The position numbers and the translations under genes were made by a program. Positions 6,541 to 35,500 of a DNA stretch of 64,000 nucleotides are shown here, piece after piece (positions within the stretch are counted from its first letter, which is position 1; each line of letters begins with the position of its first letter). This DNA comes from Opitutales bacterium. Its GTDB lineage: Bacteria; Verrucomicrobiota; Verrucomicrobiia; Opitutales; UBA2987. Location of the stretch: contig CBDDEL010000015.1 in NCBI GenBank assembly GCA_965226885.1, positions 192,001 through 256,000 of the forward strand. Reading direction: 5' to 3'. Below the pieces are notes generated by a model, which worked only from the letters and a program-made list of their open reading frames with translations, had not been told where the DNA came from and searched no databases.

Positions 6541-8108
6541 CCCGGATATTTCGTAAAAAAAAGTATCGTTGATATGCTTAACTGCTGATATACAGCAGGA
6601 TAGATCAATAATTAAAGCAATATCAGCGATGACAAAAGGTAAACAATTAAAGCTACAGTTGACAAGGGTAAAAGGCCGCCGTGTGCGGGTTGATTTCAAG
6701 GGCGGAGAGGTTACTTCGGATGCCGGACTGCTTTTGATCCGGGAAGTGGATCGGCAGTTGGGCTTGACCGAACGAGCGGCCCGACAGTTAGTGGACAAAC
6801 GGCAGAAGGGCAAAGTACGCCATGAGGTATTGGGGATGCTGCGGCAGCGCGTTTACGGGCTGGTGGCGGGCTATGAGGATTTGAACGACTTTGATACCCT
6901 GCGCCACGATCCATTGTTGCAAACGGTAACGGGGCGCATTGAAACGTTGGCCAGCGCGCCGACTTTGTGTCGTTTTGAAAACGGGCAGGATCGGCGGGCG
7001 GCCTTTGCGGTAAACGAGCTGTTGGTCGAACAGTTCATGGGCTCCTTTGCCGAGGAACCCGAAGAGATCATCCTGGACTTTGACGCCACCGACAATCCGG
7101 TGCACGGGCTCCAGGAGGGACGTTTTTTCCACGGTTATTATGATCATTACTGTTTTCTGCCGCTATATGTTTTTTGCGGTGATCAGCTGCTGGTGGCCTA
7201 CCTGCGGCCGAGCAAGATCGATGCCAGCAAGCATGCCGGGGCCATCCTCAAATTGCTGGTTAAACGGATTCGCCAAAGCTGGCCCCGTAAGCGGATTATT
7301 TGGCGCGCCGACAGTGGATTTTGTCGAGACCGGATACTCTCTTGGTGCGACCGCAACGAAGTTAGTTACATCGTGGGGATGGCTCGCAATGCACGCTTGC
7401 AGCAAGACGCCCAGCAGTTGCAAAAGCAGGCCAAAGAATGGTTCGAACTAAGGGGTAAAAAACAACGGTTATTCCAGGACTTCGTCTATGCTGCCGATTC
7501 GTGGCGATGGCTGCGGTTGGTCATCCATAAAGCCGAACACACCGCACAGGGGTCCAACCCGCGCTTCGTGGTGACGAACCTGCCGGGCGATCCCCAGGAG
7601 CTTTACGACAAGGTATACTGTGGCCGCGGTGAAATGGAGAACCGAATCAAGGAACAGATGCAATTGTTCAGCGAGCGCACCAGCGCCCATCAATGGTGGG
7701 CCAATCAGTGGCGATTGCTCTTGTCGGCGCTGGCCTACACCTTGATGGAAGCCATGCGCCGGCTAGCCTTAAAAGGGACGAAGTGGGCGCGGGCCCAATG
7801 CCACACCCTGCGGCTCAAATTAATCAAGATCGGAGCGGTCATCGTGCGCAACACCCGAACGATTCACTTTCACCTAAGTGAGAGTTATCCTTGGGCCAGT
7901 CTTTTCAACCATGCGGCCCGCCGATTGGTGCCAACCTAAAGGGTGCATTGGTGCTGCCCCCGGCACTACCGAACCAATGGGGGAAAGGGGGCAGTGTCTC
8001 TACACCCTGAAAAACACCTAAAAATCAAGACGATCTGCTCAAAATACAAAGAAATCCATCTCCAATAGCAATAACGAGCCAAACTTTACCCTTCATGAAA
8101 TATCCGGG
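6541..8108 (+). mobile_element. IS1380-family insertion sequence, copy 1 (intact)
   Basis: Terminal IRs CCCGGATATTTC...GAAATATCCGGG, flanked by a CTAA duplication (6537-6540 and 8109-8112). Confidence 0.95.
6629..7939 (+). CDS. IS1380-family DDE transposase
   Basis: TSDAG, LDFDATD...HGxQEG.F.HGYY, RADSGF and RGEMENRIKE motifs. ATG at 6629 preferred because the upstream TTG is lost in copy 5. Confidence 0.93.
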   Translation: MTKGKQLKLQLTRVKGRRVRVDFKGGEVTSDAGLLLIREVDRQLGLTERAARQLVDKRQKGKVRHEVLGMLRQRVYGLVAGYEDLNDFDTLRHDPLLQTVTGRIETLASAPTLCRFENGQDRRAAFAVNELLVEQFMGSFAEEPEEIILDFDATDNPVHGLQEGRFFHGYYDHYCFLPLYVFCGDQLLVAYLRPSKIDASKHAGAILKLLVKRIRQSWPRKRIIWRADSGFCRDRILSWCDRNEVSYIVGMARNARLQQDAQQLQKQAKEWFELRGKKQRLFQDFVYAADSWRWLRLVIHKAEHTAQGSNPRFVVTNLPGDPQELYDKVYCGRGEMENRIKEQMQLFSERTSAHQWWANQWRLLLSALAYTLMEAMRRLALKGTKWARAQCHTLRLKLIKIGAVIVRNTRTIHFHLSESYPWASLFNHAARRLVPT

Positions 8109-11201: not shown

Positions 11202-12768
11202 CCCGGATATTTCATGAAGGGTAAAGTTTGGCTCGTTATTGCTATTGGAGATGGATTTCTTTGTATTTTGAGCAGATCGTCTTGATTTTTAGGTGTTTTT
11301 CAGGGTGTAGAGACACTGCCCCCTTTCCCCCATTGGTTCGGTAGTGCCGGGGGCAGCACCAATGCACCCTTTAGGTTGGCACCAATCGGCGGGCCGCATG
11401 GTTGAAAAGACTGGCCCAAGGATAACTCTCACTTAGGTGAAAGTGAATCGTTCGGGTGTTGCGCACGATGACCGCTCCGATCTTGATTAATTTGAGCCGC
11501 AGGGTGTGGCATTGGGCCCGCGCCCACTTCGTCCCTTTTAAGGCTAACCGGCGCATGGCTTCCATCAAGGTGTAGGCCAGCGCCGACAAGAGCAATCGCC
11601 ACTGATTGGCCCACCATTGATGGGCGCTGGTGCGCTCGCTGAACAATTGCATCTGTTCCTTGATGCGGTTCTCCATTTCACCGCGGCCACAGTATACCTT
11701 GTCGTAAAGCTCCTGGGGATCGCCCGGCAGGTTCGTCACCACGAAGCGCGGGTTGGACCCCTGTGCGGTGTGTTCGGCTTTATGGATGACCAACCGCAGC
11801 CATCGCCACGAATCGGCAGCATAGACGAAGTCCTGGAATAACCGTTGTTTTTTACCCCTTAGTTCGAACCATTCTTTGGCCTGCTTTTGCAACTGCTGGG
11901 CGTCTTGCTGCAAGCGTGCATTGCGAGCCATCCCCACGATGTAACTAACTTCGTTGCGGTCGCACCAAGAGAGTATCCGGTCTCGACAAAATCCACTGTC
12001 GGCGCGCCAAATAATCCGCGTACGGGGCCAGCTTTGGCGAATCCGTTTAACCAGCAATTTGAGGATGGCCCCGGCATGCTTGCTGGCATCGATCTTGCTC
12101 GGCCGCAGGTAGGCCACCAGCAGCTGATCACCGCAAAAAACATATAGCGGCAGAAAACAGTAATGATCATAATAACCGTGGAAAAAACGTCCCTCCTGGA
12201 GCCCGTGCACCGGATTGTCGGTGGCGTCAAAGTCCAGGATGATCTCTTCGGGTTCCTCGGCAAAGGAGCCCATGAACTGTTCGACCAACAGCTCGTTTAC
12301 CGCAAAGGCCGCCCGCCGATCCTGCCCGTTTTCAAAACGACACAAAGTCGGCGCGCTGGCCAACGTTTCAATGCGCCCCGTTACCGTTTGCAACAATGGA
12401 TCGTGGCGCAGGGTATCAAAGTCGTTCAAATCCTCATAGCCCGCCACCAGCCCGTAAACGCGCTGCCGCAGCATCCCCAATACCTCATGGCGTACTTTGC
12501 CCTTCTGCCGTTTGTCCACTAACTGTCGGGCCGCTCGTTCGGTCAAGCCCAACTGCCGATCCACTTCCCGGATCAAAAGCAGTCCGGCATCCGAAGTAAC
12601 CTCTCCGCCCTTGAAATCAACCCGCACACGGCGGCCTTTTACCCTTGTCAACTGTAGCTTTAATTGTTTACCTTTTGTCATCGCTGATATTGCTTTAATT
12701 ATTGATCTATCCTGCTGTATATCAGCAGTTAAGCATATCAACGATACTTTTTTTACGAAATATCCGGG
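11202..12768 (-). mobile_element. IS1380 copy 2, inserted at the stop codon of the ISNCY transposase (tnp 11371-12681)
   Basis: Same IRs as copy 1; CTAG duplicated at 11198-11201 and 12769-12772. Confidence 0.95.
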
Positions 12769-13442
12769 CTAGAGAGCGGAAAAGCAAGGACAATACTTTT
12801 TCACAGCCGTACTGTCGGCTCATACAAAGAAAACCAGGCAACCGGACCCCAAAACCAGTATCCTAACGTCATAGGAGAGCAAAGTTGATACTCTCCCAAA
12901 TGCAAATACCTCTAAAATGAGCGCCTATCAAAAGCCCTCGCAAAAATCACCCTTTTGGGACAGCCTCTATTGTATTATGAGGGCGAAGGTGTGCCGCAGG
13001 ATTTCAAACTAGCCCAAAAGTGGTTTTTAAGAGCAGCCAAGCAGGGCTACCCGGAGGCACAGGTAAATATTGCTTTGATGTTTTACATTGGCGAAGGTGG
13101 ATCCAGAAATTATCGAGCCGCGCTCAAATGGTTTCGCCATGCGGCCGATCAAGGTCATCTGGAAGCCCAACGGGATGTGGCCTGGATGTATTTCGAGGGC
13201 GAGGGCGTATCCCGCAATTATAAAAAAGCGCTTCAATGGTTTACCCATGCGGCTGAGCAAGGTTACTCCGTTGCCCAATACAATCTCGGTGTAATCTACC
13301 TCAACGGTGATGGCGTGGATCAGGATTTAGAACTGGCACTTAATTGGATTCAACGGTCAGCAGACCAGGATTATCCGATGGCGCAACTCACTCTAGGGCA
13401 GATGTACGCCCAAGGACAGGGTGTTGCCCAGGACACAACTAA

Positions 13443-14480
13443 CCCGGATATTTCATGAAGGGTAAAGTTTGGCTCGTTATTGCTATTGGAGATGGATTTC
13501 TTTGTATTTTGAGCAGATCGTCTTGATTTTTAGGTGTTTTTCAGGGTGTAGAGACACTGCCCCCTTTCCCCCATTGGTTCGGTAGTGCCGGGGGCAGCAC
13601 CAATGCACCCTTTAGCCCGGATATTTCATGAAGGGTAAAGTTTGGCTCGTTATTGCTATTGGAGATGGATTTCTTTGTATTTTGAGCAGATCGTCTTGAT
13701 TTTTAGGTGTTTTTCAGGGTGTAGAGACACTGCCCCCTTTCCCCCATTGGTTCGGTAGTGCCGGGGGCAGCACCAATGCACCCTTTAGCCCGGATATTTC
13801 ATGAAGGGTAAAGTTTGGCTCGTTATTGCTATTGGAGATGGATTTCTTTGTATTTTGAGCAGATCGTCTTGATTTTTAGGTGTTTTTCAGGGTGTAGAGA
13901 CACTGCCCCCTTTCCCCCATTGGTTCGGTAGTGCCGGGGGCAGCACCAATGCACCCTTTAGCCCGGATATTTCATGAAGGGTAAAGTTTGGCTCGTTATT
14001 GCTATTGGAGATGGATTTCTTTGTATTTTGAGCAGATCGTCTTGATTTTTAGGTGTTTTTCAGGGTGTAGAGACACTGCCCCCTTTCCCCCATTGGTTCG
14101 GTAGTGCCGGGGGCAGCACCAATGCACCCTTTAGCCCGGATATTTCATGAAGGGTAAAGTTTGGCTCGTTATTGCTATTGGAGATGGATTTCTTTGTATT
14201 TTGAGCAGATCGTCTTGATTTTTAGGTGTTTTTCAGGGTGTAGAGACACTGCCCCCTTTCCCCCATTGGTTCGGTAGTGCCGGGGGCAGCACCAATGCAC
14301 CCTTTAGCCCGGATATTTCATGAAGGGTAAAGTTTGGCTCGTTATTGCTATTGGAGATGGATTTCTTTGTATTTTGAGCAGATCGTCTTGATTTTTAGGT
14401 GTTTTTCAGGGTGTAGAGACACTGCCCCCTTTCCCCCATTGGTTCGGTAGTGCCGGGGGCAGCACCAATGCACCCTTTAG
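13443..14480 (-). repeat. Tandem array of six 173-bp units, each the IS1380 right end (IRR plus 3' UTR plus CTAA)
   Basis: Units start at 13443, 13616, 13789, 13962, 14135 and 14308. Each runs cccggatatttcatgaag...gcaccctttag; the last continues into the transposase. Confidence 0.97.
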
Positions 14481-15784
14481 GTTGGCACCAATCGGCGGGC
14501 CGCATGGTTGAAAAGACTGGCCCAAGGATAACTCTCACTTAGGTGAAAGTGAATCGTTCGGGTGTTGCGCACGATGACCGCTCCGATCTTGATTAATTTG
14601 AGCCGCAGGGTGTGGCATTGGGCCCGCGCCCACTTCGTCCCTTTTAAGGCTAACCGGCGCATGGCTTCCATCAAGGTGTAGGCCAGCGCCGACAAGAGCA
14701 ATCGGCACTGATTGGCCCACCATTGATGGGCGCTGGTGCGCTCGCTGAACAATTGCATCTGTTCCTTGATTCGGTTCTCCATTTCACCGCGGCCACAGTA
14801 TACCTTGTCGTAAAGCTCCTGGGGATCGCCCGGCAGGTTCGTCACCACGAAGCGCGGGTTGGACCCCTGTGCGGTGTGTTCGGCTTTATGGATGACCAAC
14901 CGCAGCCATCGCCACGAATCGGCAGCATAGACGAAGTCCTGGAATAACCGTTGTTTTTTACCCCTTAGTTCGAACCATTCTTTGGCCTGCTTTTGCAACT
15001 GCTGGGCGTCTTGCTGCAAGCGTGCATTGCGAGCCATCCCCACGATGTAACTAACTTCGTTGCGGTCGCACCAAGAGAGTATCCGGTCTCGACAAAATCC
15101 ACTGTCGGCGCGCCAAATAATCCGCGTACGGGGCCAGCTTTGGCGAATCCGTTTAACCAGCAATTTGAGGATGGCCCCGGCATGCTTGCTGGCATCGATC
15201 TTGCTCGGCCGCAGGTAGGCCACCAGCAGCTGATCACCGCAAAAAACATATAGCGGCAGAAAACAGTAATGATCATAATAACCGTGGAAAAAACGTCCCT
15301 CCTGGAGCCCGTGCACCGGAGTGTCGGTGGCGGCAAAGTCCAGGATGATCTCTTCGGGTTCCTCGGCAAAGGAGCCCATGAACTGTTCGACCAACAGCTC
15401 GTTTACCGCAAAGGCCGCCCGCCGATCCTGCCCGTTTTCAAAACGACACAAAGTCGGCGCGCTGGCCAACGTTTCAATGCGCCCCGTTACCGTTTGCAAC
15501 AATGAATCGTGGCGCAGGGTATCAAAGTTCGTTCAAATCCTCATAGCCCGCCACCAGCCCGTAAACGCGCTGCCGCAGCATCCCCACTCATGGCGTACTT
15601 TGCCCTTCTGCCGTTTGTCCACTAACTGTCGGGCCGCTCGTTCGGTCAAGCCCAACTGCCGATCCACTTCCCGGATCAAAAGCAGTCCGGCATCCGAAGT
15701 AACCTCTCCGCCCTTGAAATCAACCCGCACACGGCGGCCTTTTACCCTTGTCAACTGTAGCTTTAATTGTTTACCTTTTGTCAT
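14477..15784 (-). pseudogene. IS1380 transposase, damaged
   Basis: Relative to the other copies: 4-bp deletion near 15586, 1-bp insertion near 15528, and DFDATDNP changed to DFAATDTP in the first catalytic motif. Confidence 0.88.
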
Positions 15785-16536
15785 CGCTGATATTGCTTTA
15801 ATTATTGATCTATCCTGCTGTATATCAGCAGTTAAGCATATCAACGATACTTTTTTTACGAAATATCCGGGCTAAATTTGTATCAAGAAGCTGCTCTGCA
15901 GGGTTCAGCTCTGTCACAAAAATATTTAGGAGGTTTGTACTACACGGGGAGAATTGTCAGTCAAGATTATGATGTGGCTTTGAAATGGTATCACATGGCC
16001 GCCGAGCAGGGAGATGTCATAAGCGAATTCCAATTAGGCCTAATTTATAAAGATGGTCATGATGTGGAGCGGGATCTCGTTGAAGCGGTCAGATGGTTAA
16101 GTCCAGCCGCCGACCAGGGACACGCGAGTGCTCAAAATGCCCTCGCCTGGCTGTTGGCAACCTCTGTGGATGATAACATTCGAGATGGACAATTGGCTAT
16201 CCAATACGCCCTTGGAGCGGTCGAAAACAGGAAAGATTTCGGATTTGTGGATACCCTGGCCGACGCCTATGCGGAGGCGGGTCAGTTTGAGAAGGCGGTG
16301 GAAACCCAGAAAGAAGTTATTTCCATGGTAACCGAAGATCATTCTACCTTTGAGGAATTTGTGGAGAGGCTTAAGGGTTATGAGAATAGTGAGCCCTGGC
16401 GGGAGGATAGGTAAACAAAGGTATATTTGCAGCTTATTGGCCAATCTCCGGCTATTGACCCTTGCGGTGGAGGCCGGTTAATTTGTCTCCTTTTCCCCTT
16501 CAATTCAGATAATGTTTTTAATCGGGATGGTAAAAT

Positions 16537-22937: not shown

Positions 22938-25278
22938 GAGGCTGTCCCAAAAGGGTGATTTTTGCGAGGGCTTTTGATAGGCGCTCATTTTAGAGGTATT
23001 TGCATTTGGGAGAGTATCAACTTTGCTCTCCTATGACGTTAGGATACTGGTTTTGGGGTCCGGTTGCCTGGTTTTCTTTGTCTGAGCCGACAGTAAGGCT
23101 GTGAAAAAGTATTGTCCTTGCTTTTCCGCTCTCTAGCCCGGATATTTCATGAAGGGTAAAGTTTGGCTCGTTATTGCTATTGGAGATGGATTTCTTTGTA
23201 TTTTGAGCAGATCGTCTTGATTTTTAGGTGTTTTTCAGGGTGTAGAGACACTGCCCCCTTTCCCCCATTGGTTCGGTAGTGCCGGGGGCAGCACCAATGC
23301 ACCCTTTAGGTTGGCACCAATCGGCGGGCCGCATGGTTGAAAAGACTGGCCCAAGGATAACTCTCACTTAGGTGAAAGTGAATCGTTCGGGTGTTGCGCA
23401 CGATGACCGCTCCGATCTTGATTAATTTGAGCCGCAGGGTGTGGCATTGGGCCCGCGCCCACTTCGTCCCTTTTAAGGCTAACCGGCGCATGGCTTCCAT
23501 CAAGGTGTAGGCCAGCGCCGACAAGAGCAATCGGCACTGATTGGCCCACCATTGATGGGCGCTGGTGCGCTCGCTGAACAATTGCATCTGTTCCTTGATT
23601 CGGTTCTCCATTTCACCGCGGCCACAGTATACCTTGTCGTAAAGCTCCTGGGGATCGCCCGGCAGGTTCGTCACCACGAAGCGCGGGTTGGACCCCTGTG
23701 CGGTGTGTTCGGCTTTATGGATGACCAACCGCAGCCATCGCCACGAATCGGCAGCATAGACGAAGTCCTGGAATAACCGTTGTTTTTTACCCCTTAGTTC
23801 GAACCATTCTTTGGCCTGCTTTTGCAACTGCTGGGCGTCTTGCTGCAAGCGTGCATTGCGAGCCATCCCCACGATGTAACTAACTTCGTTGCGGTCGCAC
23901 CAAGAGAGTATCCGGGCTCGACAAAATCCACTGTCGGCGCGCCAAATAATCCGCGTACGGGGCCAGCTTTGGCGAATCCGTTTAACCAGCAATTTGAGGA
24001 TGACCCCGGCATGCTTGCTGGCATCGATCTTGCTCGGCCGCAGGTAGGCCACCAGCAGCTGATCACCGCAAAAAACATATAGCGGCAGAAAACAGTAATG
24101 ATCATAATAACCGTGGAAAAAACGTCCCTCCTGGAGCCCGTGCACCGGATTGTCGGTGGCGTCAAAGTCCAGGATGATCTCTTCGGGTTCCTCGGCAAAG
24201 GAGCCCATGAACTGTTCGACCAACAGCTCGTTTACCGCAAAGGCCGCCCGCCGATCCTGCCCGTTTTCAAAACGACACAAAGTCGGCGCGCTGGCCAACG
24301 TTTCAATGCGCCCCGTTACCGTTTGCAACAATGGATCGTGGCGCAGGGTATCAAAGTCGTTCAAATCCTCATAGCCCGCCACCAGCCCGTAAACGCGCTG
24401 CCGCAGCATCCCCAATACCTCATGGCGTACTTTGCCCTTCTGCCGTTTGTCCACTAACTGTCGGGCCGCTCGTTCGGTCAAGCCCAACTGCCGATCCACT
24501 TCCCGGATCAAAAGCAGTCCGGCATCCGAAGTAACCTCTCCGCCCTTGAAATCAACCCGCACACGGCGGCCTTTTACCCTTGTCAACTGTAGCTTTAATT
24601 GTTTACCTTTTGTCATCGCTGATATTGCTTTAATTATTGATCTATCCTGCTGTATATCAGCAGTTAAGCATATCAACGATACTTTTTTTACGAAATATCC
24701 GGGCTAGCCCGCCGCTTTGGTTTTTAGTTCGTCTTGCTGGGCCAGCATCTTGGCTACTTTCCATAGGTTGTGCGAGAGTACCGACCAGGCTACGCTGATC
24801 GAGCGGTTGGCAAAGCCTTTGCTGCGCAACCGCCCGGCCTGCCAGCGATTCTTCAATACCCCGATCCGCCCTTCGGTGCTGGCCCGGCGCTTTTGCAATT
24901 GTCTGAACAGTGGTTCCTCCATCCGTTTTTTCAACTGCTTCGGATCGCGTGGACAGAGCGCGTCGTAGATTCCCTCCTGGGCTAACTGCCGGCGGGCCCG
25001 CTGGGAGGCAAATCCCCGGTCCGCGCACATGGCCGCTATGGGTTCTTCCAGGTTGAAGCGGTTCTGTCTTTGCAAACTCTCTTGCATTTGTTCATTTTCG
25101 CTTGGAGTTCGGCTGCCGTAGAGTTTCCAGTCCAGCAGGTACCCTTCAACGCTTTCTCCCAAAAACAGGGTGTTGCCGAACTCGACCTCTTGGCCCGCTT
25201 TACCTCGCACAATCACCTGCCCATCGAGTTCGTAAACACTCAAGACTTTCTCTGCGTTTTTCACCTGGCGGCCGCCAA
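22938..25278 (-). mobile_element. Truncated ISNCY-like copy (3' part only), with nested IS1380, cut off by IS21
   Basis: Right IR at 22938; transposase C-terminus at 24704-25278 matches the other copies; the 5' half is absent beyond the IS21. Confidence 0.88.
23137..24703 (-). mobile_element. IS1380 copy 4 (tnp 23306-24616)
   Basis: IRs present; CTAG duplicated at 23133-23136 and 24704-24707. Confidence 0.95.
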
Positions 25279-27863: not shown

Positions 27864-27970
27864 CCCGGATATTTCGTAAAAAAAGTATCGTTGATATGCT
27901 TAACTGCTGATATACAGCAGGATAGATCAATAATTAAAGCAATATCAGCGATGACAAAAGGTAAACAATT
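27864..27970 (+). mobile_element. IS1380 left-end fragment truncated by IS1
   Basis: CTAA followed by the IRL and the first codons MTKGKQL, then an abrupt switch to the IS1 IR GGTAGTGTAT. Confidence 0.9.
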
Positions 27971-32637: not shown

Positions 32638-35500
32638 TGATCGGACCCCATCTTTGCTACCACTTTAAGTGAGAGTATTTCCTTAGGTTTGGTATTGTAG
32701 GTTTTGCAGCGGGTGGCGCAATGAGGCCGTAGGCCGAATGGAGCCAGCCGCTGCTTTGTTGATTGTTCGCCAGAGTCTGGCAAATGTATTTGGGGAGAGA
32801 AAGCCTAACCCGGATATTTCGTAAAAAAAGTATCGCTGATATGCTTAACTGCTGATATACAGCAGGATAGATCAATAATTAAAGCAATATCAGCGATGAC
32901 AAAAGGTAAACAATTAAAGCTACAGTTGACAAGGGTAAAAGGCCGCCGTGTGCGGGTTGATTTCAAGGGCGGAGAGGTTACTTCGGATGCCGGACTGCTT
33001 TTGATCCGGGAAGTGGATCGGCAGTTGGGCTTGACCGAACGAGCGGCCCGACAGTTAGTGGACAAACGGCAGAAGGGCAAAGTACGCCATGAGGTATTGG
33101 GGATGCTGCGGCAGCGCGTTTACGGGCTGGTGGCGGGCTATGAGGATTTAAACGACTTTGATACCCTGCGCCACGATCCATTGTTGCAAACGGTAACGGG
33201 GCGCATTGAAACGTTGGCCAGCGCGCCGACTTTGTGTCGTTTTGAAAACGGGCAGGATCGGCGGGCGGCCTTTGCGGTAAACGAGCTGTTGGTCGAACAG
33301 TTCATGGGCTCCTTTGCCGAGGAACCCGAAGAGATCATCCTGGACTTTGACGCCACCGACAATCCGGTGCACGGGCTCCAGGAGGGACGTTTTTTCCACG
33401 GTTATTATGATCATTACTGTTTTCTGCCGCTATATGTTTTTTGCGGTGATCAGCTGCTGGTGGCCTACCTGCGGCCGAGCAAGATCGATGCCAGCAAGCA
33501 TGCCGGGGCCATCCTCAAATTGCTGGTTAAACGGATTCGCCAAAGCTGGCCCCGTACGCGGATTATTTGGCGCGCCGACAGTGGATTTTGTCGAGACCGG
33601 ATACTCTCTTGGTGCGACCGCAACGAAGTTAGTTACATCGTGGGGATGGCTCGCAATGCACGCTTGCAGCAAGACGCCCAGCAGTTGCAAAAGCAGGCCA
33701 AAGAATGGTTCGAACTAAGGGGTAAAAAACAACGGTTATTCCAGGACTTCGTCTATGCTGCCGATTCGTGGCGATGGCTGCGGTTGGTCATCCATAAAGC
33801 CGAACACACCGCACAGGGGTCCAACCCGCGCTTCGTGGTGACGAACCTGCCGGGCGATCCCCAGGAGCTTTACGACAAGGTATACTGTGGCCGCGGTGAA
33901 ATGGAGAACCGAATCAAGGAACAGATGCAATTGTTCAGCGAGCGCACCAGCGCCCATCAATGGTGGGCCAATCAGTGGCGATTGGTGGGCCAATCAGTGG
34001 CGATTGCCTACACCTTGATGGAAGCCATGCGCCGGTTAGCCTTAAAAGGGACGAAGTGGGCGCGGGCCCAATGCCACACCCTGCGGCTCAAATTAATCAA
34101 GATCGGAGCGGTCATCGTGCGCAACACCCGAACGATTCACTTTCACCTAAGTGAGAGTTATCCTTGGGCCAGTCTTTTCAACCATGCGGCCCGCCGATTG
34201 GTGCCAACCTAAAGGGTGCATTGGTGCTGCCCCCGGCACTACCGAACCAATGGGGGAAAGGGGGCAGTGTCTCTACACCCTGAAAAACACCTAAAAATCA
34301 AGACGATCTGCTCAAAATACAAAGAAATCCATCTCCAATAGCAATAACGAGCCAAACTTTACCCTTCATGAAATATCCGGGCTAATCGGCTGTGGGGGTG
34401 TTTCGCGTTGTATTTGTGTCGCCATTGTTCGACCACCACACGCGCTTCGGTCACGCTCAGGAACAGTTCCTGATTAAGGCATTCATCGCGCAAACGATTA
34501 TGAAAGGATTCTATATGTCCATTCTGCCAAGGGCTTCCTGGATCAATGTATGCAATGGCAATTTCCTGCCGCTGCAGTTCTTCTTTGACTTGGTGGGCTA
34601 TAAACTCCGATCCGTTGTCCGAGCGGATGCACTGAGGTTTGCTGTTCTCCTTTATGGCTTTGTTCAATACCTCTACCACATCGGTACTTTTCAGTGAGCG
34701 CGCAACCTTAATGGCCAGGCATTGTCGGGTATGTTCATCGATCAGTGTCAAGAGCCTGAGCGGACCGCCCCGGTCGGTGCGATCCGCCACAAAGTCCCAA
34801 CTCCACACATGGTTGGGCTGCACTGCTCGGGTCAGGGTAGCTGTAGAGTGGCCCTGCCGGCGACGGCGCTTGCCAGGCGGCCGGCACACCCAGTCCTTCG
34901 AAACGACGCACTTTTTGGACGAATTTGCGACTCACGGGCCAGCCTTCATGGGCCAACAAAGCGCGGATCCGACGATAGCCATAGCGAGGGTGCTTCTTCG
35001 AAAAGGCAATGATGCGTGTCACCAGTTTATGCCTATACTCAGTAGCTTTCTTGGGTTCATACAGGTAGGTTGAGCGATGCAACCCAAAATACTGACAGGC
35101 CCGACGCAGCGAGCACGACCCTTGGGCCAATACATGCTTCACCGCTTCCTTTTTCTGCTTCGGGCCTACCATTTTTTTGCGTTCACCTCCTTGAGCACAC
35201 GGTTCTCCAGCATCTGCTCGGCTACTATCTTCTTAAGCTGCGTGTTTTCGCGCTCCAGCTCCTTCAGCCGCTTGGCGTCACGTAACTCCATCCGGCCATA
35301 CTTTTTACGCCAACGATGATAGCTTTGAGGACTAATATTGTGGGACCGACAGACATCCTGGATGCCTTTGCCTGCGTCTACTTCGCGCAGTATCGTTATG
35401 ATCTGTTCAGGTGTGTATCTTTTTTGCTTCATATGTCTTTCCGGTAATTTCTCCAGAAAGACTCTCACTGGCAATGGTCATGTTTTTGGCGGTCACATCA
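32638..35500 (-). mobile_element. IS3-family (IS407-like) element interrupted by IS1380; orfA 35166-35432, orfB frameshifted
   Basis: Ends TGATCGGACCCC..GTGAGAGT and ACTCTCAC..GGTCACATCA; OrfA MKQKRYTPEQI; OrfB WSWDFV, SDNGSEF and PWQNGHIESF. The C-terminus HPHSRLGFLSP continues across the IS1380; extra frameshift near 34890. Confidence 0.85.
32809..34381 (+). mobile_element. IS1380 copy 5 (tnp 32896-34212)
   Basis: IRs present; CTAA duplicated at 32805-32808 and 34382-34385; internal duplication plus deletion near 33961-34010. Confidence 0.95.

Follow-up and report, generated by a model that had tools for sequence, protein, structure and literature searches.

Insertion sequences (ISs) of the IS1380 family are elements of about 1.5-1.7 kb with a single long open reading frame, short terminal inverted repeats starting with CC, and a target duplication of 4-5 bp, with 4 bp in members other than IS1247. 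One of them, ISEcp1, mobilizes adjacent DNA, including blaCTX-M genes, from a single copy. Here, we describe a 64,000-nucleotide stretch of the genome of an Opitutales bacterium (hereafter, the window), in which a damaged copy of an IS1380-family element ends in six identical right ends, stacked head to tail without spacers, and compare this array with the described systems that resemble it. The array is probably real and a passive by-product of an element that inserts into itself, combined with recombination; we infer, rather than observe, that recombination took place, in what order the events followed, and that the array lacks a function of its own.

Self-insertion has been followed during laboratory evolution of Escherichia coli carrying an activated IS1 derivative. 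The consulted parts of PMC12065110 report that IS-within-IS insertions were about as frequent as the proportion of IS sequence in the genome predicts, that nesting sets homologous sequence side by side, with recombination then generating structural variants, and that parts of nests can be mobilized further; according to its authors, variants would form more readily if an IS contained preferred target sites. The genome analyzed here is such a case. It resembles the system of PMC12065110, as portrayed in those parts of the paper, in that self-insertion is followed by recombination variants, and a nest with its own duplication as well as collapsed derivatives are both present here. The IS1 derivative, as described there, belongs to another family, has little target preference, and yields heterogeneous variants, whereas here strict targeting of the tetramer YTAR at a few internal sites leads to precise spacerless arrays of up to six ends, in a natural genome holding several hundred copies. 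A second parallel is provided by the ISPme1 and IS1247a transposable modules, in which, according to the consulted parts of PMC3281130, one IS1380-family copy mobilizes adjacent DNA. ISPme1, IS1247a, and ISEcp1 belong to the same transposase family as the present element, and the idea that a left end may pair with a more distant right end is common to both cases. The alternative right ends of these elements are, however, degenerate surrogates located in flanking DNA, whereas the extra ends here are perfect copies produced by self-nesting. IS1247 itself is 1672 bp long, with inverted repeats given as 16/13 and a 5-bp target duplication (PMC3281130, Table 2). Composites copied as units in this genome would be compatible with alternative right-end use, although ectopic recombination would explain them equally well.

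The array lies at positions 13443-14480 of the window, where Tandem Repeats Finder reports six head-to-tail units of 173 bp (6.0 copies, 100% matches, 0% indels, score 2076), a unit count that comes from the assembly alone. On the element (minus) strand, each unit consists of CTAA, 157 nt of 3′ untranslated region (UTR), and the 12-bp right inverted repeat (IRR), and ends in the tip ...GAAATATCCGGG, which is followed by the next CTAA without a spacer. The junction 22-mer matches the window 5 times, in each case on the minus strand (0.01 expected from shuffles), and the IS tip CCCGGATATTTC has 17 matches at no more than 1 mismatch (0.58 expected). The innermost unit (14308-14480) is the 3′ end proper to the arrayed element, and its CTAA, at 14477-14480, overlaps the transposase stop codon (...CCA ACC TAA). 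The 5 extra units match element positions 1395-1567 at 100% (BLAST) and, like the element's own end, show no difference from the consensus of 191 full copies. The composite is bracketed by CTAA at 13439-13442 and at 15872-15875 and interrupts a Sel1-repeat gene, with the array antisense to the 5′ half of the broken gene. Compared with the consensus, the arrayed copy lacks 4 bp at element positions 286-289, has gained an A following 346, and carries 4 substitutions, which split its open reading frame (ORF) into parts of 103 and 341 aa; each of these changes is also present in 2 to 16 other copies. The first-pass annotation of this locus had described six identical 173-bp units attached to a damaged transposase gene, and both descriptions are accurate.

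The family assignment made in that annotation is likewise confirmed. The adjacent intact copy (11202-12768), used as the reference, is 1567 bp long, has a single 436-aa ORF (element positions 88-1398), and carries the same perfect 12-bp terminal repeat, CCCGGATATTTC, at both ends. Its transposase matches the NCBIfam equivalog model NF033539 (transpos_IS1380) with 416.1 bits against a cut-off of 180 (model positions 1-418 of 419) and Pfam PF13701 (DDE_Tnp_1_4) with 550 bits (E = 2.4e-165, positions 3-430 of 435); the DDE assignment is that of the PF13701 profile match. The element thus combines a curated IS1380 model scoring above its cut-off, a DDE_Tnp_1_4 domain, the size, single ORF, and short inverted repeats of the family, and a 4-bp duplication. 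Elements of the IS5 group have a YTAR/CTAG target and a 4-bp duplication, and the present element is like them in its YTAR target with CTAG preferred and in the length of its duplication, but its transposase belongs to the IS1380 family. Membership of the IS5 family was rejected: the transposase is not of the IS5 type, its sole NCBIfam match at E ≤0.001 is IS1380, and PF01609 reaches only 57.9 bits compared with 550 for PF13701.

The target of the element was determined from the window and from the whole assembly (G000), which comprises 5.48 Mb in 17 contigs and holds the window within its 743-kb contig C15. Five complete copies and a 107-bp left-end fragment (27864-27970) are present in the window, and each of the 5 complete copies has either CTAA/CTAA or CTAG/CTAG at its borders. 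Genome-wide, the tetramer next to 630 IS tips (330 right and 300 left) is CTAG in 218 cases, CTAA/TTAG in 369, TTAA in 31, and another sequence in 12. A perfect 4-bp duplication flanks 123 of the 151 lone full copies, and in 116 rebuilt unique empty sites, positions other than those of YTAR are uninformative (at most 0.12 bit). Outside the IS, CTAG receives 18.9 insertions per 1000 available sites, CTAA/TTAG 5.2, and TTAA 0.28. The CTAA/CTAG target recognized in the first-pass annotation is therefore correct and can be narrowed to YTAR. In the literature searched, which included neither ISfinder and TnPedia nor subscription journals, we found no description of a YTAR target in the IS1380 family or of spacerless arrays of IS ends, and no paper containing both “IS1380” and “CTAG” as whole words; the consulted parts of PMC4133298 contain nothing on targets.

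The genome-wide search for the array junction that had been proposed as a check was carried out with a 31-mer comprising the IRR tip, CTAA, and the UTR, which has 20 matches (19 exact and 1 with one mismatch) at 14 loci of the assembly. In all 20 IRR-to-UTR junctions, the stop-codon CTAA directly follows the exact tip of the IRR. Right-end stacks of 173-bp units are present at 8 loci, with 6, 3, 3, 3, 2, 2, 2, and 2 ends, one of the 3-end stacks having a 235-bp unit in between. An intact nest, [1-1398][1-1567][1395-1567] in element positions, is found at C14:420745-423882, with TTAG/TTAG on the two sides of the host copy and CTAA/CTAA on those of the insert, and 3 further intact intermediates are located at C11:13162, C15:529639, and C15:569070. 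The reciprocal product, [1-1398][1-1567] without a trailing unit, occurs at 3 loci. Left-end stacks, [1-824][1-1567], are present for the internal site 821-824, where both duplications are similar in length. The tetramer that follows the outermost IRR on the element strand is TTAG, CTAG, or TTAA in 8 of the 8 stacks of 173-bp units and never CTAA, so that no microhomology was available there to prime a duplication. Two of these 8 stacks are flanked by TTAA (C9:23196-25183 and C16:51827-53589), a tetramer that flanks 4 of 123 lone copies, although the numbers are small.

We propose the following origin for the stack. A second copy would insert, in the same orientation, into the stop-codon CTAA and duplicate it, producing the nest X-CTAA-X-CTAA-Y-CTAA-Y, in which X stands for element positions 1-1394 and Y for positions 1399-1567. 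Such a nest would hold a 1398-bp tandem duplication adjoining one of 173 bp. Longer homologous repeats recombine more often, and homologous recombination would be expected to collapse the 1398-bp duplication far more readily than the 173-bp one. Collapse of the long duplication would leave one body with 2 right ends, the exact IRR tip joined to CTAA, whereas collapse of the short one would leave [1-1398][1-1567]; right-end stacks would be the commoner product because the longer repeat recombines more often. Stack size might then change by more nesting into any CTAA, by unequal exchange of 173-bp units, or by recombination with other stacked copies, and composites could be relocated either by transposition that uses their outer ends or by a double crossover involving two IS copies. 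In the first-pass annotation, the transposase joined the right end to the internal CTAA of a sister or second copy; the nested intermediates agree with this part of its account, from which the step that removes the duplicated body was absent.

Two sets of loci illustrate how composites changed after they had formed. The 673-bp segment next to the array on its IRR side (C15:204770-205442) has a copy of 100% identity at C10:268004-268676, and at both loci another full IS copy follows (at C15, the window copy 11202-12768). At C10, the 673-bp segment adjoins a 3-end stack whose outer tetramers, CTAA and TTAG, do not match, which identifies this copy as a recombinant. One ancestral insertion is present with 3 and with 6 ends, and either direction of change is possible. 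An extra right end of 235 bp, with the IRR joined to the CTAA at 1333, occurs at 3 loci with differing flanks. It carries a G at consensus position 1461 at all 3, whereas none of the 191 full copies has a G there; this common G indicates that the 235-bp end arose once and was then copied as a unit.

Head-to-tail IS pairs that lie 4 bp apart with a YTAR spacer were observed at 21 places (for example, C14:106933-110070, C17:67005-70143, and C16:824220-827358). IS30 and IS21 form tandem dimers with an abutted junction between the IRR and the left inverted repeat (IRL), to which the 21 pairs bear a likeness. The spacers here differ from such junctions in being YTAR tetramers, and nothing marks the junction as a reactive intermediate. 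The spacer equals both flanks in 4 of the 9 fully readable pairs, as expected for insertion into a neighbor's duplication, and 4 of the 9 have a TTAG spacer unlike the pair's own matching outer flanks. A common origin of the TTAG-spacer dimers in general was considered and rejected, as only 2 of those compared have identical haplotypes.

Seven CTAA/TTAG sites lie inside the element, at 247, 821, 907, 1222, 1333, 1395, and 1477, and the element's own sequence abuts 44 of the 330 right tips and 43 of the 300 left tips. The IS accounts for 15.4% of the CTAA/TTAG sites of the genome. About 25 nested insertions would be expected per 257 outside left tips and 43 are seen; since insertions into genes are under negative selection, an excess of this size (approximately 1.7-fold) is unremarkable and requires no homing of the element to its own sequence. 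The first-pass view of a transposon that targets its own stop codon therefore holds insofar as the CTAA at that position is used, but not in the sense of special homing, given the approximately 1.7-fold excess and the fact that 821-824 is used just as often. Of the 39 left (IRL) tips at the 7 internal sites, 19 lie at 821-824 and 13 at 1395-1398; site 1222 has 5, and none of the remaining sites has more than 1.

The insertion itself is visible in public sequencing data, albeit in runs from which the assembly itself may derive: in Logan contigs of the runs X15 and X16, the unique flank continues into the IRR at a depth of about 4, which shows that the insertion is present there, and the depth of the IS interior, 738 and 1068, is in keeping with several hundred copies. 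Runs labeled as sponge, marine, or sediment metagenomes share 0.12-0.47 of the words, from which no habitat is drawn. Several results weigh against the origin proposed above. None of the X15 and X16 contigs listed bridges the IRR/CTAA junction, and the depth inside the junction is 738.8 compared with 738, with no extra contig, although these k-mer contigs show presence rather than absence and cannot count units. The junction was found in none of 4 congeneric genomes, even though one of them (G004) has the same IS, the assemblies of the congeners being more fragmented, and a 38-mer junction probe has no match in metagenome contigs. The use of the internal sites is uneven (chi-square 61, p = 3e-11, a figure that overstates the effect because some loci are copies of one another and not independent events), and simple availability of YTAR leaves the 2 hot spots unexplained; an extended target consensus that might cause them was not found among the 116 unique empty sites. 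Nested copies at 1395-1398 are oriented 11 in the same and 2 in the opposite direction (p = 0.02), compared with 10 and 9 at 821-824, a bias for which we can only infer a cause, namely that opposite nests at 1395 would place 1.4-kb inverted repeats 169 bp apart, an arrangement that would be unstable in bacteria. Finally, the six identical units do not discriminate between repeated nesting and unequal exchange.

Among other explanations, the most probable would have the arrays spread and enlarge mainly by transposition, much as ISEcp1 and ISPme1 use alternative right ends: the left end would pair with any IRR, and a stacked copy nesting in a stacked copy would sum their ends (3 + 3 = 6). We regard this as unlikely, but several observations agree with it, including the 235-bp end with its G at 1461, copied as a unit to 3 differing flanks, the TTAG-spacer dimers (4 of 9) that do not fit their own matching flanks, 2 of them of identical haplotype, and the mobilization of adjacent DNA by single IS1380-family copies in the modules described in the consulted parts of PMC3281130. 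By simple arithmetic, moreover, a single unequal exchange between two 3-unit arrays would yield no more than 5 units, but 6 would result if one stack of 3 nested in another. However, the flanks do not discriminate, as a double crossover (gene conversion) also moves a composite and keeps the matching duplication of the locus; the TTAG-spacer dimers are not all of one haplotype; a deletion from 6 to 3 ends is equally possible for the C10/C15 pair; and recombination is still needed to remove the duplicated body. It is less probable again that the array is in part an artifact of assembly, with the junction real but the unit count wrong, or with C10 and C15 as alternatives of a single locus within a mixed population. 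Near-identical repeats abound in the genome (479 pieces), the six units are known from the assembly alone, no junction contig is listed in public data, and the same 673-bp flank appears twice with different unit numbers. Against this stands an assembly in which several hundred 1.5-kb copies that are at least 99.7% identical are resolved into 17 contigs, which suggests reads much longer than the 2.4-kb composite, and in which the array lies inside a 743-kb contig. Thirteen other loci have stacks of 2 or 3 ends or intact intermediates whose duplications are correct, structures that an assembler would not invent, and population variants at C10 and C15 would themselves amount to variation in unit number between molecules.

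Of the 2 remaining possibilities, a selected function appears very improbable. The array might be a sink that titrates transposase, as six predicted binding ends beside a dead transposase gene, in a genome with a heavy IS load (9.4%) and 54 of 191 full copies without an intact ORF, would allow, or it might provide extra copies of an outward promoter or of a regulatory element in the 3′ UTR. The first-pass annotation had considered the 3′ UTR to be structured, which the fold of the unit does not support: it is no better than that of shuffles (z = -0.26, with 67 of 200 shuffles folding as well). Within the units, there are no promoter-like and no terminator-like sites, and the unit has no Rfam match at E up to 0.1; in fold, promoters, terminators, and Rfam, we saw no evidence of a function of the array. 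The stacks mostly have 2 ends, the array is antisense to the 5′ half of the broken Sel1 gene, and six extra ends among approximately 330 IRRs would add less than 2% to the binding sites. The least credible alternative is a tandem duplication of the 3′ end by replication slippage or microhomology, without transposase. Identical tandem units are typical of slippage, and from 2 units on, slippage or unequal exchange can alter their number, but the first duplication needs a repeat at both borders, and the outer flank is not CTAA in 8 of 8 stacks. All 20 junctions, moreover, fall exactly at the IRR tip, and intact nested intermediates exist. Self-insertion followed by recombination remains the explanation that we consider probable.

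Shorter junction probes have matches in public contigs, with 2 for the 22-mer (genome contigs L001 and L002) and 6 for the 24-mer (metagenome contigs). Arrays in other phyla were considered on this basis and rejected: the matches are tips of related IS1380-type elements and of miniature inverted-repeat transposable elements (MITEs), not stacks. Four of the contigs encode an IS1380-family transposase that is approximately 40% identical, with the probe at the left or right end of the element and the stop codons outside YTAR. Two metagenome-assembled genomes carry MITE-like elements that are flanked by YTAR and share the 13-nt tip, those of approximately 130 bp with at least 6 tips and those of approximately 245 bp with at least 26; no close transposase was found in these 2 genomes (best match, 32 bits). 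We read the probe matches as tips of a widespread clade lying beside flanks that would match by chance or recur. The 13-nt tip CCCGGATATTTCA and YTAR flanks are common to elements in unrelated phyla (L001, L002, L021-L026, and L029-L040), and L035 contains one head-to-tail MITE pair with a 4-bp spacer. In 5 of the 8 contigs found with the probes, the flank continues as a common GGACAC... sequence of unexplained nature, which in one MITE is present on one side only, speaking against a longer inverted repeat.

Coordinates of the array, the arrayed element, and neighboring features (positions in the window unless a contig of the assembly is named)
Feature	Position	Strand	Remark
Target-site duplication CTAA, IRR side (TTAG on element strand)	13439..13442		Identical to 15872-15875
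Six 173-bp units, CTAA + 3′ UTR + IRR	13443..14480	-	Last = element positions 1395-1567
Unit limits	13443-13615, 13616-13788, 13789-13961, 13962-14134, 14135-14307, 14308-14480	-	Tandem Repeats Finder
Outermost 12-bp IRR tip (CCCGGATATTTC on + strand)	13443..13454	-	Again at 13616, 13789, 13962, 14135, 14308
G+C-rich stem-loop (6 + 12 pairs) directly after CTAA	13543..13611	-	In every unit; outermost given
Internal CTAA target over transposase stop (TAA = 14477-14479)	14477..14480	-	Element positions 1395-1398
Arrayed IS1380-family body, 1564 bp	14308..15871	-	Versus consensus: 4-bp deletion, 1-bp insertion, 4 substitutions
C-terminal transposase fragment, 341 aa	14477..15502	-	PF13701 positions 86-430
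N-terminal transposase fragment, 103 aa, ended by frameshifts	15533..15844	-	PF13701 positions 3-56
Left inverted repeat tip	15860..15871	-	
Target-site duplication CTAA, IRL side	15872..15875		
Interrupted Sel1-repeat gene, upstream part	12955..13442	+	4 Sel1 repeats
Interrupted Sel1-repeat gene, downstream part	15876..16414	+	2 Sel1 repeats
Adjacent intact IS copy, reference, 1567 bp	11202..12768	-	436-aa transposase at 11371-12681
IS copies in the window	6541-8108, 11202-12768, 13443-15871, 23137-24703, 32809-34381		Fragment 27864-27970
Landing-site repeat, examples	12769-12969; flanks of C11:343346 and C16:847565		Many places in G000

Once the IS and one CTAA are removed, the 2 halves of the Sel1-repeat gene are 1 nt out of frame, as read from the sequence at 13438-13442 and 15876-15880 of the window; the gene may have been broken beforehand or altered afterwards. 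In the genome as a whole, BLAST finds 479 IS pieces in 347 clusters, 151 of which are lone full copies, and the pieces total 514,917 bases, or 9.4% of the genome. An intact ORF is kept in 137 of the 191 full copies that are more than 98% identical and lost in the other 54, in many of them through small indels, and the lengths of full copies vary between 1552 and 1590 bp. A 22-bp unit that is duplicated 2.1 times at 33961-34006, within the copy at 32809-34381 (Tandem Repeats Finder), is one of the small internal duplications behind these unequal lengths. The genome also contains a second IS subfamily that is approximately 91% identical to the first. At least 2 other high-copy repeats, present in dozens of copies, also receive insertions of the IS1380 element; one measures approximately 1259 bp and has an associated 200-bp piece, and another measures approximately 950 bp. 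Pieces [1-827] and [822-1567] of the IS recur approximately 1.6-1.8 kb apart (for example, at C10:394940-398338, C11:1335-4526, C14:237556-240636, and C12:85794-88874), and the fact that they overlap by 6 bp suggests that the 821-827 hot spot may also be hit by some other mobile element, one that duplicates 6 bp.

The array does not represent a new kind of system but appears to be a by-product of known processes. Its stages stand side by side in one genome, from the intact nest through both collapsed products to stacks of 2, 3, and 6 ends. For annotators, the rule that follows is that extra ends in IS-saturated genomes need no exotic mechanism, and stacked-end loci are also where assemblies and copy counts are least secure. 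We think it doubtful, although worth considering, that the stacked right ends work as ends, with stacks inherited and additive, and that the hot spots and the orientation bias reflect a preference of the transposase for its own DNA and not a bias of survival; if this were true, the 3′ end would be a self-amplifying module and a natural system in which to study the choice of ends in the IS1380 family. In either case, these loci offer a test bed for IS1380 end choice and for the speed with which IS-derived tandem repeats change. What the genome demonstrates for the biology of such elements is that a strict target tetramer inside an IS turns ordinary self-insertion into precise, repeatable arrays of ends, and that it does so in nature.

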